From positions 32,001-96,000 of IMG/VR virus record IMGVR_UViG_3300022539_000610: a stretch of 64,000 bases of DNA. One strand, written 5' to 3'. This document shows, one piece after another, positions 9,612-14,266 of this stretch. This DNA is from a virus. A model generated the notes under the pieces. The model had not been told where the DNA came from. It saw only the letters and a list, made by a program, of their open reading frames with translations, and searched no databases. Position 1 is the stretch's first letter, and each line of letters begins with the position of its first letter. The translations under genes and the position numbers were made by a program.

Positions 9612-9812
9612 TTACTTGTTAGAGTTTTTACCAGTACCTGTACACTGTTGTCGTGTTTTTACCCATCCTCTTGTCTCTCTTCTACGTGGTCCATATGTAT
9701 GCAATCCAAGTTCACGAGCATTACTTCGATAGCCACGCCATCCATGTCGTGGAATTAAACCATTCTTTGTAAGCGTTACAGGCATCCAACAATCAGGACA
9801 TAGTATAATCAT
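9612..9812 (-). CDS. small zinc-binding hypothetical protein
   Basis: CPDC...H...C. Confidence 0.6.
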   Translation of the reverse strand: MIILCPDCWMPVTLTKNGLIPRHGWRGYRSNARELGLHTYGPRRRETRGWVKTRQQCTGTGKNSNK

Positions 9813-9820
9813 CTAAGAGT

Positions 9821-9994
9821 TCACTCTCTTCTACCTGAGTTAATACCATACTTCTTCTGGTAATAATATACTGGAGACAAGCCTATGTTTAGTCTTTGAG
9901 CAATAATACTTGGTGTTAACCCTTCCTTTGTTAACTTCCTAATACGTTCTATCTTTACCTCTGACAATTTACCAGATCGACCTGCCATATCCAT
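9821..9994 (-). CDS. small HTH protein (not in ORF track)
   Basis: hand translation includes KIERIRKLTKEGLTPSIIAQRLNIGLSPVYYY. Confidence 0.6.
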   Translation of the reverse strand: MDMAGRSGKLSEVKIERIRKLTKEGLTPSIIAQRLNIGLSPVYYYQKKYGINSGRRE

Positions 9995-10007
9995 CTCCAA
10001 CGAATGT

Positions 10008-10745
10008 TTAAACTAATAAGGTTTTTTGTTTTTTCAAACTATCCCACATCTCATTTCCTTCCTGGGTACGAAAAGTAAGTTTGTTTGATTGAATAAAACG
10101 AGCCCTATCTACAATCTTACCAACAGGACGAGGTTTCTTAACTCCCAAAACACTGGCAAATTTCTCAGGGGTCACGATAATGTCTTTCCCTTCAATATAG
10201 TGAAACACATACTGAGGGTTGCTCTTATGTGCCTCATTAAACAACATAACTGAACGGTTGTAGTTTATCCAAATCTGCTCCAGGCATGTATAAGGATGAC
10301 CTTGTTTCCCTATCCACTGAATGTCTCTCTTCATCTTCCTTCGATAGAAAGATTGGATTATCTCAACAGGGTTTCTAAAAATTAAAACTATAGTGACTTT
10401 TTCCTTCGTATACTGTGAAAGCAAAGGGAGCCATGCCCATATACACAGAGAGTTAATAGGGGCCTTCCAGCCCCAGTTGGTAAAACAAGTTAGAGAGTTC
10501 TGAAGTTGAGCTTGCATTTCTTTCTTCACACTTGATGAAGGAGAGATGTCAGTGTGGTCAAATTTCAATCCATATCTATGCACACCACTGGAGCGAAGGA
10601 TCTTGTGAGAGATAGGTCTGTACTTCCTATTCTCACCCAGGAAGTCAATGGGAACACCTCCACTCATATCCACTCCACAATGGTGAAGGTATCGAGAAGC
10701 CAAAGATGTACCGCTTCCATGCATCCCGCAAAGGTAAAAAATCAT
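10008..10745 (-). CDS. sulfotransferase
   Basis: PAPS-binding CGMHGSGTS, WGWKAP, FRNP; start reassigned to ATG 10745. Confidence 0.8.
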   Translation of the reverse strand: MIFYLCGMHGSGTSLASRYLHHCGVDMSGGVPIDFLGENRKYRPISHKILRSSGVHRYGLKFDHTDISPSSSVKKEMQAQLQNSLTCFTNWGWKAPINSLCIWAWLPLLSQYTKEKVTIVLIFRNPVEIIQSFYRRKMKRDIQWIGKQGHPYTCLEQIWINYNRSVMLFNEAHKSNPQYVFHYIEGKDIIVTPEKFASVLGVKKPRPVGKIVDRARFIQSNKLTFRTQEGNEMWDSLKKQKTLLV

Positions 10746-10750
10746 TGCTT

Positions 10751-11932
10751 TTATACCCACACCAAAGTTCTGGAATGAAAAATCCAACTATCCAACTTTC
10801 CTACCACCCTATCAAAACCCCTTCCTGTAGAATCCTTTAAGCCGACAGAACTACCCCCATGCCATACTTCATAAATGCTATCAACTAATTTAATTAAATC
10901 CTTCGGTTGGTGAAAGTATCGTTGTTTTCTGATATTAATTCCATCTCTTCTCTGGATTTGCAATCGCCGATTATTCTTTCTTCTTTGGATTACACTGAAT
11001 GGTTTAGATCTAGTTTGCTTCGTTCCACTCGCTATAACGAAGGCATCATTTATATGTGACTTTTCCAAACCTAGATTCACTCTGTTTACTTTCGTTAAGT
11101 AGCCATACGTTCTTTCGATTTCGGGATACCATTTAGTGAATATACTTCTAATGATATTCATAAAAGAGGATTCTTTGTATTGTCTGGCCTTCTTCAACCT
11201 ATGTTCTAAATGTTGCTTATGCAACTTATCATGGCAACTCACATGAAGAAGGGCTCTGTTCTTGGGTCTATCTGTTCCCCCTTTACTTCTAGGTATGATA
11301 TGATGTAATTTCCATGGATCACTTTTCCTATATAGTTTACTACAGAGTTGACATCTACTTTTCTCTCTGGCTAAAACATACTCCTTTATGTTTTGGTATC
11401 CATACAAGTCCCCTTGCTGATACCCAGTGCCTTCGATGTCTGGATTTTCAAGTTTTTGGATATCAAAATTACCTAATTCAACAATTGTTTTAGATATAGG
11501 GAGAAAATCTTTTAACTTTTCTATGACTCTGAAATGGGTTCTAGTTCTCCTTTCTACTGAAGGGGGTAGCCAACCTTCTTTCCTTCTTCTATTGTTGAAT
11601 CTTGGTTCCCGATGTCTTAGTTTACCCCTACGATGCACTCGGTACATTCTACGATCGTCAAGTCGTCTTTTCGTATTACTGTCTACTCTCACCTCACCAC
11701 TAATTAGTTCTTCTTTCTTGGATACACAGGAAAAACCAATGTATTCATAGCCAGAGTCGATGCCGCAGGAAACATCCTGGGTATATTCCTTAGAATCATA
11801 AAGGAGCTGAATAGTGAAAGGTTTTCTCTTTACAACCTTTGCTTTGTCTTCTTTCAACAACAATCTGGCCACAACAGACCATGTTGGCATCAAAGGCTTT
11901 CCAGATTTTGATAAAACAAATACTTCTTTCAA
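10751..11932 (-). CDS. iscB: IscB RNA-guided endonuclease
   Basis: PLMP N-terminus, RuvC-I GIDSG, Arg-rich bridge helix, RuvC-II VELGNFD, HNH HHIIPRSKGGTD..N..CH, RuvC-III SHINDA; TTG start after GGAGG. Confidence 0.93.
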   Translation of the reverse strand: MKEVFVLSKSGKPLMPTWSVVARLLLKEDKAKVVKRKPFTIQLLYDSKEYTQDVSCGIDSGYEYIGFSCVSKKEELISGEVRVDSNTKRRLDDRRMYRVHRRGKLRHREPRFNNRRRKEGWLPPSVERRTRTHFRVIEKLKDFLPISKTIVELGNFDIQKLENPDIEGTGYQQGDLYGYQNIKEYVLAREKSRCQLCSKLYRKSDPWKLHHIIPRSKGGTDRPKNRALLHVSCHDKLHKQHLEHRLKKARQYKESSFMNIIRSIFTKWYPEIERTYGYLTKVNRVNLGLEKSHINDAFVIASGTKQTRSKPFSVIQRRKNNRRLQIQRRDGINIRKQRYFHQPKDLIKLVDSIYEVWHGGSSVGLKDSTGRGFDRVVGKLDSWIFHSRTLVWV

Positions 11933-11944
11933 ACTGTCCTCCAA

Positions 11945-12196
11945 TTATATACTCTACTTCTAAGAGTAGGTTGATTCCCTTCGTCAATGTTATCTTATGG
12001 TTTTTATTTACTACACTAAGACTTTCATCTTTATTTAATAGTAAATCGCAGAGTTCGGAACTAGGGAGGCATTCCGAAGTGCCTATATCATTCACAAGTA
12101 ACGTAGTACACGAAGTACTTAGACTAACCACCTCTTACGACATACATCACTGTATGTGCCTAAACCCCTGAGTTTATTAGGGTTTAGGTAGGTGGC
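11945..12196 (-). ncRNA. omegaRNA (HEARO-type) scaffold
   Basis: directly upstream of iscB; GCCACCT..AGGTGGT helix, CTACGTT, GGCACTTCGGAATGCCTCCCTAGTTCCGAACTCTGCG, AACATTGACGAAGGGA; 3' end approximate. Confidence 0.85.
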
Positions 12197-12227
12197 TCCC
12201 ATGCATGCCACAAAGATAGAGGATCAT
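12197..12227 (-). pseudogene. duplicated 5' end of the sulfotransferase gene in the omegaRNA guide position
   Basis: ATG ATC CTC TAT CTT TGT GGC ATG CAT GGG A = MILYLCGMHG(S). Confidence 0.85.
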
Positions 12228-12469
12228 TTTACAAATGCTGGATGAATTGGATGTACTGCCTTTTCCCAATATAAATCTAAAGCTGCTACAAACAAGGAGT
12301 GCACTTTTTGAACCTCTTCTTCAGTCTTGTATGAAAAGAACTCAAACACTCCAGAACAATACTTAAATCCCCAAGTCCAATAAAATTTCTCTTCTTCAAC
12401 TGAGTACACATTCTGCACATGAGGAAGAACAGCATGATACCGATTGTCAATTTGAAATGTTGATTTCAT
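12224..12469 (-). CDS. hypothetical protein
   Basis: 81 aa, AAGGAG RBS. Confidence 0.65.
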   Translation of the reverse strand: MKSTFQIDNRYHAVLPHVQNVYSVEEEKFYWTWGFKYCSGVFEFFSYKTEEEVQKVHSLFVAALDLYWEKAVHPIHPAFVK

Positions 12470-12751: not shown

Positions 12752-13348
12752 TTAGATTTCTAATCCCATTTTTCTGCCTACTTTTTCAAGATAGGAGATT
12801 ATTTTATTTACTGATTCCTCAATGGTTTCTTTATCAGTCGTAACTGTTATTTCAGGGTCTTGTGGTTCTTCGTATGGAGCAGAGATACCAGTGAATTCTA
12901 GGATCTCCCCGGCCCTTGCCTTTTTATAAAGACCTTTCATATCCCTCTCTTCACAGGCCACTAAGGTACATTTGCAAAAGATCTCTATAAATTCACTTTT
13001 ATTAGCCAGATCTCTTGCCTTTTTTCTATCTACCCTGTATGGTGATATAAATGCTGTCATGTTGATGACTCCAGCCTGACTAAAGAGATGAGCCACTTCA
13101 CCGATTCTCCTAATGTTTTCCTCCCGATCCTTGGGTGAAAATCCTAGGTCTCTGTTCAGACCATGCCTGATATTATCCCCATCTAAGACAAAGGTGATGT
13201 GTCCGGCCTCATAAAGCCTCTTTTCTACTTCAACAGCCAGGGTGGATTTACCTGAACAAGAAAGACCCGTAAACCACAGGGTAACTCCTTTTTCCCTATT
13301 GACTATAGGGTCATGCCATGTGATGTTTTGACTTTTTGGATTATCCAT
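12752..13348 (-). CDS. cysC: adenylylsulfate kinase
   Basis: [31 protein letters not shown]. Confidence 0.95.
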
Positions 13349-13399
13349 TTCTTCTGGTAGCGGTTTGATATTGTCCTCCTTTCTTTATTATAGTAGTTT

Positions 13400-14266
13400 T
13401 CAAGTAAAATCTCTTAATTTTTCCCCTAATTCAATAGATGGGCGGACATCATCAATACCAAACCCTTTTCCATCTAAAATCCCTTGGTAAATCTCAGTGT
13501 GAAGATCCTTAAATGATCTATCAAGAGCAACTTTTTTTCCATCAATTATCATTTGACGAAAAGGTTGGAACCCCTCTGCACCATCTTCCTCGTTAATAGA
13601 GAGGAACAAATCTACTGCTGTCCTCTCTAATTGAAGGAGGCACTGGAGACTTCTATCTGTCCGTTTCTCAATACTAAATTCCTGCACAGGCCCAAACAAC
13701 CAGAGCAGTAAATCTAGAATGTGAGCTCCAATGTTCAATGCTAAACCTCCAGATTTCTTGATGTCCCCCTTCCAAGAAAAATCATACCATGGGCCACGAG
13801 GAGTAACATACTTCACAGTAACTAAACGAGGATAGAAATTATCTATTTGTCGCAATCTTTGTACATCTGGATGAAGCCGAAGTTGTAAAACTGAGTAAAC
13901 TCGTTGTCCAGTCTCCTGCTCCAACTGAGCTAAATAATCAAGATTCTCTGGGTTAATAGAAAGAGGCTTCTCACAGATCACATCACACCCCAGTTTCATA
14001 CCAAACCGACTGTGGGCCTCATGTAAGTAGTTAGGTGAGCAGACCGAAACATAATCGATCTGCTGTTTTGTACCCCTCAGTTTATTAACATATCTATCAA
14101 AAGCATCAAACTGAGTAAAGAAATTACATTTAGGAAAATAGCTATCAAGGATACCAACAGAGTCGTTAGGGTCAATAGCAGTAACTAACACGTTTCCTGT
14201 GTCCCGGATAGCCTTCATGTGTTTGGGCGCTATGAAACCGGCAGCTCCTATTAGAGCAAAATTCAT
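13400..14266 (-). CDS. WbpB/WlbA-like NDP-sugar 3-dehydrogenase (Gfo/Idh/MocA)
   Basis: FALIGAAGFIAPKH, CSPNYLH, CEKP, SWKGD. Confidence 0.9.
   Translation of the reverse strand: MNFALIGAAGFIAPKHMKAIRDTGNVLVTAIDPNDSVGILDSYFPKCNFFTQFDAFDRYVNKLRGTKQQIDYVSVCSPNYLHEAHSRFGMKLGCDVICEKPLSINPENLDYLAQLEQETGQRVYSVLQLRLHPDVQRLRQIDNFYPRLVTVKYVTPRGPWYDFSWKGDIKKSGGLALNIGAHILDLLLWLFGPVQEFSIEKRTDRSLQCLLQLERTAVDLFLSINEEDGAEGFQPFRQMIIDGKKVALDRSFKDLHTEIYQGILDGKGFGIDDVRPSIELGEKLRDFT

Follow-up and report, generated by a model that had tools for sequence, protein, structure and literature searches.

The window, a 64,000-nt stretch of a T4-like phage record (positions 32,001 to 96,000 of IMGVR_UViG_3300022539_000610), carries iscB and its omegaRNA directly before a sulfotransferase-like gene, and the 5' end of this gene is present on both sides of them. 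IscB is the transposon ancestor of Cas9. The question at stake was whether a phage IscB guards its own insertion site only or acts in trans on a conserved gene of rivals. We consider it somewhat better than even, at a probability of about 0.55, that an ISC-type element with eroded ends occupies a mosaic joint here, that its guide arose by accident, and that the duplicated gene start was left as a scar of allelic recombination or deletion.

All locus features were located on the minus strand (Table 1). An imperfect direct repeat of 34 nt, identical at 27 positions (79%), brackets the full-length HEARO/omegaRNA and iscB. Its score was reached by none of 200 and none of 100 shuffles in two shuffle tests, and it was the strongest repeat of its kind among the 62 viral IscB loci compared. 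Thus, the duplicated gene start pointed out in the preliminary description is real. The adjacency of the upstream copy (stub A) to the scaffold also stood, with the scaffold start placed at 12196 according to the HEARO match. Homology of stub A to the gene start extends to 12195, the final two shared bases (GC) being scaffold nt 1–2, and the stub proper is 31 nt long. Its reading frame continues into the omegaRNA as a 16-codon micro-ORF starting MILYLCGMHGS. Stub A and the copy at the start of the intact gene (copy B) differ at nt 6, 7, 9, 12, 18, 21, and 30; six of these seven differences fall on the third base of a codon (p = 0.007), and the encoded peptides agree at 10 of 11 residues. The last ~10 codons of ORF X, the gene coupled to the stub, were missing from both X homologs, P0139 and P0140, the only two found. 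Promoter and terminator scans gave results at chance level.

Table 1. Features of the iscB locus in the window.
Feature	Position	Strand	Description
APS kinase gene	13348-12752		2 kb upstream of the sulfotransferase-like gene
ORF X	12469-12224	minus	81 aa; stop TGA overlaps the stub ATG (ATGA)
ATTCATCC motif	12247-12240	minus	in the ORF X tail, 12 nt before the stub ATGA
Repeat pair	10713-10746 / 12195-12228		34 nt, 79% identity; repeat search
Stub A	12227-12197	minus	31 nt; orphan duplicate of the start of the sulfotransferase gene (MILYLCGMHG + 1 nt)
Predicted 16-nt guide TGTGGCATGCATGGGA	12212-12197	minus	directly 5' of scaffold nt 1
omegaRNA scaffold	12196-11970	minus	HEARO RF02033, model positions 1-211, full length
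iscB	11944-10751	minus	397 aa; TTG start after GGAGG; PLMP, RuvC, bridge helix, HNH
ATAAAA	10754-10749	minus	overlaps the iscB stop; likeliest target/TAM motif; right end then 10755
ATGAT	10745-10741	minus	sulfotransferase start region; alternative N|ATGA target; right end then 10746
Sulfotransferase-like gene	10745-10008	minus	245 aa; starts 5 nt after the iscB stop
Copy B	10745-10713	minus	5' end of the intact gene, MIFYLCGMHGS; 7 differences from stub A

The IscB protein matched the RRXRR (PF14239, 6.8e-59) and HNH (PF01844, 8.4e-12) profiles and could be aligned to IscBs of solved structure, OgeuIscB among them, at E=1e-48; GIDSGY, ELGNFD, HHIIP, and SHINDAF are conserved. The RuvC-I D, RuvC-II E, HNH HH, and RuvC-III H..D residues were aligned to those of OgeuIscB and were invariant in a 15-sequence alignment; judged from these alignments, the catalytic motifs are intact. 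The nearest IscB proteins were P0019, at 72% identity, and P0020–P0025, at about 60%, and a scan of genome contigs for nearer relatives gave a top match of 50%, although its matches could be used in the survey of element ends. The HEARO match scored 112.7 bits against a gathering score of 83, and the scaffold ends 25 nt before the iscB start. It begins with GCCAC in place of the usual GTCAA, and compensating changes were found in the P1 partner strand. The IscB domain set with its catalytic residues and the full-length HEARO upstream on the same strand identify an IscB–omegaRNA (OMEGA) system. The earlier view that the IscB catalytic residues look intact was upheld by the Pfam matches and the motif alignment to OgeuIscB, and by its HEARO score the omegaRNA is intact as well. 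Stub A abuts scaffold nt 1 and therefore supplies the guide, so that the guide position is filled, as had been proposed, by a copy of the conserved 5' end of the gene. The only near matches to the guide in the record were the guide itself and copy B, with 3 mismatches. Y1 TnpA (PF01797) was not found in the whole 114-kb record, which is about 53% complete, and the stated lack of tnpA was thereby extended from the window to the record; the host may nevertheless encode a copy.

The window sulfotransferase alone gave E=0.13, 10 of 17 family members matched PF13469 (best 3.5e-7), and the family profile matched the CurM sulfotransferase at 1.1e-7. GMH[GS]SGTS, the N-terminal PAPS-binding loop, was invariant or nearly so in the family, and the gene product is predicted to be a PF13469-like sulfotransferase, the closest relatives being P0002–P0005. 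Element-free alleles resembling the guide copy were looked for and were found in three related phages (L002–L004), where 14–15 of the 16 guide positions were matched (1–2 mismatches). The resident copy B has 3 mismatches to the guide, including one at the second position counted from the TAM side. In the L002–L004 alleles, the guide match is followed by GCGGGA or GTGGGA and not by ATRA.

The preliminary description had regarded the resident gene as recoded for protection. However, only 3 of the 7 differences between stub A and copy B lie in the 16-nt protospacer, the other 4 lie outside it, and the TAM-side bases are unchanged. Moreover, the observed distance of 7/31 is an ordinary distance between alleles, as L002–L004 and the window differ from one another by 4–8/31. 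This pattern fits an allelic origin of the two copies and not a targeted recoding. The gene also begins at a mosaic boundary, with a different upstream neighbour in every relative and conserved synteny downstream. Close relatives of the phage were not detected by blastn/tblastn against 50,697 phage records, and viral-contig scans with the sulfotransferase, ORF X, and the family alignment as queries gave no matches.

Whether the intact gene start belongs to the element depends on the right end. ISC transposons are non-autonomous IS200/IS605-family elements encoding IscB (Kapitonov, Makarova, Koonin 2016; PMC4810608), and they use an N|ATGA/ATAA target without making a target duplication. The TAM is the target motif abutting the element end distal to the omegaRNA, and cleavage by GstIscB was abolished by single TAM changes (10.1101/2023.03.14.532601). 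In at least 15 IscB element families from phages, bacteria, and archaea, copies in different contexts lose their shared sequence at ATAA(A)/ATGA(A) (element-pair loci L020/21, L052/54, L058/79/80, L113/115, L117/118/120, L123/124, L127/157, L129/171, L130/135, L145/151, L148/163, L070/129, and L091/169). The left limit was HEARO nt 1 in every near-identical element pair from different contexts, and single loci with the canonical hairpin likewise showed the ATAA/ATGA end pattern. The L020/L021 boundary, GGG|ATAAA, overlaps the stop codon, and the ATAAAA of the window is placed exactly alike; ATGAT follows it after 9 nt. L113/L115 align to the window IscB over residues 3–393, including the C-terminal domain. 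Beyond a conserved TL(I/V)W, the closest IscB proteins have 1–3 residues left; these vary, and the proteins end mostly in residues with A-ending codons, which is consistent with a stop codon provided by an ATAA target.

Judged from relatives that are 39–55% identical, the right end and the TAM would lie at these motifs, and the element most likely ends 0–9 nt before the sulfotransferase gene. As this right end would lie before the gene ATG, the supposed rescue copy would be flank and not cargo, and its assignment to the element, as made at the outset, would not stand. The ATAA/ATGA end rule may also serve as a simple indicator of the right end and TAM of such elements in other windows.

The 3' subterminal hairpin for Y1 TnpA (ATTCATCC-stem-loop-stem-GGTYTYCTT) was not found after the iscB stop. 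The distance from the TTCATTCC octamer to ATAAA is 17 nt in the window, and that from the start of TTCATCC to ATAAA is 25 nt, compared with 43–47 nt in hairpin-bearing loci. In such a hairpin-less subfamily, the coupling of the TAM to the transposase target may be relaxed, which counts against the reading that we prefer. A pattern scan of viral contigs for either of the two predicted empty sites, written as the guide with RYRR after it, gave 0 matches. As a separate count, the record contains about 477 ATAAA sites on both strands together; this number bears on how much of a coincidence a given insertion site is, and far fewer would be harmless.

In the preferred reading, an ISC-type (IS200/IS605-family) IscB–omegaRNA element of ~1.44 kb, running from 12196 to about 10755, would have been placed at an ATAA/ATGA target directly before the sulfotransferase start codon and would have lost its transposase-binding 3' hairpin. 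A second, allelic sulfotransferase gene would once have been translationally coupled to ORF X, and the stub would be its orphaned 5' end. It would be a scar that recombination or deletion left at a hyperplastic gene boundary and not half of a designed target-plus-rescue pair. It would have become the guide by position alone, because an IscB guide is whatever 16 nt precede the scaffold. On this view, the guide would be cognate to the joint that the element leaves when absent, in which ATAAAAGCA or ATGAT comes directly after the stub, and not to the wild-type sulfotransferase alleles. If active, IscB would cut genomes having the same joint without the element, recombination would copy the element back, and the outcome would be retention or non-restorative homing.

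Against the preferred reading, the stub ends within 2 nt of the left end of the element, which is a coincidence if the stub was there beforehand and the insertion was independent. Two unproven links may be proposed: the shared GC may have anchored a deletion or an illegitimate joint at the end of the element, or 31 nt may have been duplicated and a second ATGA target formed in this way. Two further routes were considered and set aside, a surrogate TnpA end inside the gene and a Campbell-type integration of a circle, since gene nt 32–36 (GCGGT) resemble neither ATRA nor the element end motif. The flank duplication is not a property of the element family because no other of the 62 viral loci has it. 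The weak flank repeats in L059, L083, L089, and L039 looked like RBS/terminator similarities or broken loci and not like a case of the same kind.

The reading proposed at the outset places the omegaRNA, iscB, and a replacement 5' end together in one mobile unit, inserted inside the sulfotransferase gene at codon 11; its guide would cut element-free alleles at GMHG while mismatches protect the restored gene, leading to homing or to killing of co-infecting relatives. We regard this as quite unlikely, although it accounts for the stub ending at the scaffold without coincidence. The guide adjoins the scaffold of a predicted intact IscB, the foreign alleles have fewer mismatches than the resident one, with its TAM-side mismatch, and an element lacking both transposase and 3' hairpin must spread by recombination. 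A guide on the most conserved motif of the gene, matching foreign alleles at 14–15/16, is what a drive predicts, yet it is automatic for any 5' stub. The OgeuIscB TAM is NWRRNA, and GCGGTA is one position off this motif. However, the foreign alleles lack ATRA(A), the end motif of every related element family examined, and this weighs against the claimed cleavage of element-free alleles, as GCGGGA/GTGGGA stand where the IscB clade uniformly has ATRA(A). Moreover, ATRA(A) occurs twice between the iscB stop and the gene ATG, which would leave copy B outside the element, and the differences between the copies are neither concentrated in the protospacer nor larger than those between alleles. The architecture was seen in 0/61 other viral IscB loci, so that the expected generality among phages was not borne out, and presence/absence at the site was seen in no close relative. 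A related version is equally doubtful: a relaxed or shifted TAM of the hairpin-less subfamily might accept GCGGKA/GTGGGA, and a captured PAPS-loop guide might then cut the sulfotransferase genes of co-infecting relatives, the resident being spared by the TAM-proximal mismatch, as natural RNA-guided intronless homing or interference. If true, the locus would stand part of the way between guides derived from the flank and guides that have been captured and act in trans.

An origin in situ from an earlier element copy is unlikely too, if a little easier to accept. Here, the element and the first 31 nt of the gene were duplicated in tandem, or an older ISC stood at the same ATGA, and the upstream copy was deleted to a ~30-nt relic (the ORF X tail) before a later allele exchange. 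The 3' hairpin region of ISC elements has a conserved start, ATTCATCC, which was seen in many loci; it has just 5 copies in 228 kb (both strands). The ORF X tail with this motif is missing from both X homologs and shows a collinear 15/17 match to the iscB 3' end. Tentatively, the motif may have remained from the end of an earlier ISC element. However, the alignment is not significant by itself (p=0.30), the motif was noticed post hoc, and the scenario takes several steps and still requires the joint at scaffold nt 1. A recent duplication of identical copies within the genome, followed by neutral decay of the stub or by selected recoding, would explain the direct repeat itself, but it is very improbable: the divergence of 21%, its third-codon bias, and the conserved residues are unlike the decay of a non-coding stub, and selected escape should cluster in the protospacer and TAM. 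Since the contig is a metagenome assembly, a false stub could also have arisen if two strains that occurred together, only one of them carrying the element, were fused into a chimera. This is hardly credible. The stub is joined in frame to ORF X, and its joint with scaffold nt 1 is precise; assemblers are misled by identical repeats, and these copies have diverged; and the same proteins occur on two contigs of nearly equal length (114,031–114,036 nt).

If the preferred reading holds, the locus joins the phage-borne IscB elements that lack a transposase. It also makes a clean test case: the guide and the resident allele are known, and so are the two candidate TAMs and three natural alleles from other phages.

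Synthetic Cleave-and-Rescue (ClvR) drives combine a nuclease and a guide against a gene with a recoded, uncleavable copy nearby, and the preliminary description had seen this architecture (nuclease, guide, nearby recoded copy) in the window. In contrast to ClvR, the "recoded" part is 33 nt long, no more diverged than natural alleles, belongs to an accessory gene, and most likely lies outside the mobile unit. The free-standing homing endonucleases of T-even phages, SegF, SegG, and MobE (intronless homing, PMC13565253), likewise have a nuclease gene between conserved phage genes at an exchange boundary, and here too, substitutions in a conserved gene close by would have to distinguish self from non-self alleles. 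Unlike them, the window element would use RNA-guided recognition, and the TAM needed was not seen beside the foreign guide match; a SegF/SegG/MobE-type way of working is thus not supported here.

Among the closest known systems, ISC transposons (PMC4810608) also have a single iscB, a length of ~1.4 kb, a structured RNA upstream, and no encoded transposase, with a GTCA-type scaffold start as the 5' terminus and ATGA/ATAA directly after the 3' end. The window element differs in its GCCA terminus, in the absence of the subterminal 3' hairpin, and in a guide-side flank that is a 31-nt copy of the following gene, whereas ISC transposons make no target duplication. IscB retention (10.1101/2023.03.14.532601) and non-restorative homing (PMC13565253) share with the window the flank-derived guide and the TAM at the other end. 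The window differs in that it belongs to a lytic T4-like phage, that its activity is predicted, and that, having no TnpA or hairpin, only the recombinational half could operate. The residues mutated in dIscB correspond to its catalytic D and HH in the alignment, and, as in those systems, the nuclease would be expected to cut the empty joint, after which recombination would copy the element back in.

All features of the IscB-sulfotransferase locus are carried by the minus strand, and their coordinates are summarized in the table. IscB contains RRXRR/PLMP and HNH domains, and all of its catalytic motifs were found to be in place on alignment to solved IscB structures. A gap of 5 bases separates iscB from the sulfotransferase-like gene. 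The sulfotransferase identity is weak for the window protein alone; at the family level it holds, with PF13469 matched by 10 of the 17 members and the family profile matching the CurM sulfotransferase at 1e-7. An APS kinase, which supplies PAPS, is encoded nearby. No Y1 transposase was found on the source record of the window, a 114-kb IMG/VR virus record estimated to be 53% complete. The window corresponds to bases 32001-96000 of that record.

Table. Features of the IscB-sulfotransferase locus, in order of transcription
Feature	Position	Strand	Score
GFO/IDH/MocA oxidoreductase gene	14266-13400	minus	
APS kinase gene	13348-12752	minus	
tRNA-Tyr	12574-12491	minus	
ORF X, 81 aa	12469-12224	minus	
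Stub of sulfotransferase 5' end (copy A), 31 nt	12227-12197	minus	
HEARO/omegaRNA scaffold, full-length	12196-11970	minus	112.7 bits (gathering score 83)
iscB, 397 aa	11944-10751	minus	
Sulfotransferase-like gene (5' end, copy B), 245 aa	10745-10008	minus	

A repeat search recovered a direct repeat of 34 nt with 79% identity (10713-10746 and 12195-12228), and its score was reached by no shuffle. Thus, the duplication of the gene start around iscB noted in the preliminary description was confirmed. An ATGA overlap couples the stub to X, and therefore X and a sulfotransferase gene would once have been translationally coupled. As the scaffold starts at 12196, the 16-nt guide TGTGGCATGCATGGGA is predicted to come from the stub. 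The final two bases common to both repeat copies, GC, form nt 1-2 of the scaffold, whose position 2 was counted as part of the RNA because it is paired and a compensating change occurs in the P1 partner strand. Through the same overlap, an open 16-codon micro-ORF at the stub (12177-12227, minus; MILYLCGMHGSHLPKP) is coupled to X. Since it extends into the omegaRNA's first stem, its translation could interfere with guide RNA folding on read-through transcripts.

The limits of the element were defined by comparing near-identical IscB elements in differing contexts. The left limit was HEARO nt 1 in all sets compared, and the common sequence ended on the right at ATAA(A) or ATGA(A); the independent families showing this number at least 15 and span phages, bacteria, and archaea. 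Where a single locus had the canonical 3' hairpin, ATAAA or ATGAA stood 43-47 nt past ATTCATCC. This hairpin is absent from the window element. At two other viral loci, L020 and L021, the hairpin lies within the coding region and ATAAA shares bases with the stop codon; the window is arranged likewise, with GT|ATAAAA at the iscB stop and ATGAT, the sulfotransferase start codon region, 9 nt further on. In the closest IscB proteins, a conserved TL(I/V)W is followed by 1-3 variable residues up to the C terminus, which fits an element boundary there. The right end is most likely 10755, or 10746, judging from these comparisons. Either way, copy B would be flanking DNA, and the proposal that the element carries a rescue copy as cargo is disfavoured, as the inferred end lies upstream of copy B. 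The L020 and L021 elements (L020:2742-4225 and L021:2742-4225) are 99% identical in two unrelated phage contigs and sharply limited, at scaffold nt 1 to the left and at GGG|ATAAA over the stop codon to the right, indicating that the element has moved between phages recently. The L020 copy has 9-10 nt of its left flank again 34 nt beyond the right end.

Three metagenome contigs (L002-L004) contained sulfotransferase genes without iscB upstream, with approximately 74-75% DNA and 74-76% protein identity to the window gene. The guide has 2, 2, and 1 mismatches at the 5' ends in L002, L003, and L004, respectively, and 3 at copy B. The bases after the match are GTGGGA or GCGGGA in these contigs and GCGGTA in the resident gene, none like ATRA(A). 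In published work, the TAM of IscB coincides with the target motif adjoining the element end distal to the omegaRNA, and single TAM changes abolish cleavage by GstIscB (10.1101/2023.03.14.532601). As no ATRA(A) follows the guide match, neither the three alleles nor the resident gene start would be targets under the family end-motif rule. The guide's cognate target is predicted to be the empty joint of the element itself, in which the stub runs into ATAAAAGCA or ATGAT.

It had been proposed that the guide cuts element-free alleles while a recoded resident copy rescues the gene. Such alleles do exist, with 1-2 guide mismatches, but the adjoining bases are GTGGGA or GCGGGA rather than ATRA(A). 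Between copies A and B, differences occur at nt 6, 7, 9, 12, 18, 21, and 30. Four of these seven differences lie outside the protospacer, and the distance (7/31) is inside the natural allele range of 4-8/31; recoding for protection was therefore not supported. Six of the seven fall at third-codon positions (p=0.007), and thus both lineages diverged under coding constraint. Most simply read, the two copies derive from two different alleles, in which case the locus would be the joint of two phage lineages or of two former paralogs. The earlier interpretation is thus supported in part: the parts it described are real, but the mechanism is disfavoured. A drive at this locus is unlikely, at about one chance in eight, which it keeps because the TAM was inferred from proteins only 39-55% identical.

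The stub ends at most 2 nt from the left end of the element, and an independent insertion beside a pre-existing stub would need this as a coincidence. Two mechanisms considered for the joint, TnpA surrogate ends and circle integration, were unsupported, as gene nt 32-36 are unlike any family target. The final ~10 codons of X are missing from both X homologs (n=2), where the C-terminal tail AVHPIHPAFVK (12240-12260, minus) has no counterpart. Within the tail DNA, 12 nt ahead of the ATGA of the stub, lies AATTCATCC, a conserved motif that opens the 3' hairpin region of ISC elements; ATTCATCC has just five copies in 228 kb, both strands counted. This may be what remains of an earlier ISC element that sat at that ATGA, which would suggest a duplicated unit of element 3' end plus gene 5' end, but the underlying alignment does not reach significance by itself (p=0.30).

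The gene upstream of the sulfotransferase is an oxidoreductase gene in distant relatives, a metallophosphatase-like gene in L002 and L004, and another gene in L003; in the window, X and the IscB element occupy this position. With a variable upstream neighbour and a downstream neighbour that is conserved among relatives, synteny supports placing a hyperplastic boundary precisely where the gene begins. In the distant relatives (L005-L014), a GFO/IDH/MocA oxidoreductase gene lies immediately 5' of the sulfotransferase, and compared with them the window (12752-14266) has APS kinase, tRNA-Tyr, X, and the IscB element inserted between the two. In L002-L004, the sulfotransferase gene and the one after it overlap at stop and start. 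Compared with these contigs, the final ~8 codons are replaced in the window, and ~410 extra bases follow (9612-10030, minus) with two small ORFs, one of 59 aa with a resolvase-type HTH_7 match (E=2.9e-4, below the Pfam cut-off) and one of 66 aa that is Cys-rich. Thus, the gene is flanked by insertions at both ends.

To survey flank duplication, 80 viral IscB loci were collected, omegaRNA starts were placed with Rfam, and the 45 nt preceding the scaffold were compared with the 300 nt past the iscB stop in 62 non-redundant loci. The window clearly gave the strongest match; the runners-up were short and resembled RBS or terminator similarities. The stub-element-gene-start architecture is unique within this 62-locus sample. 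Around another viral IscB unit, a gapped direct repeat of ~50 nt was observed (L083:2700-2760 and L083:4165-4220), with copies ending in ..TGATTAA and ..TAATTAA and an atypical HEARO start call (ATCGG). L051 contains two full-length HEARO RNAs (L051:1529-1777 and L051:2711-2971), 1.2 kb apart with a tRNA in between; as iscB follows only the second, the first probably represents a derivative lacking the protein. In another viral contig, 1 kb upstream of the IscB element, lies a RAGATH-18 RNA (L086:1676-1736), a member of the guide RNA family of IS607-type TnpB.

The locus belongs to an already known kind of element. The ATAA(A)/ATGA(A) ends of the surveyed families agree with the target published for ISC transposons, N|ATGA/ATAA without target duplication (PMC4810608), and with the reported identity of TAM and target motif (10.1101/2023.03.14.532601).
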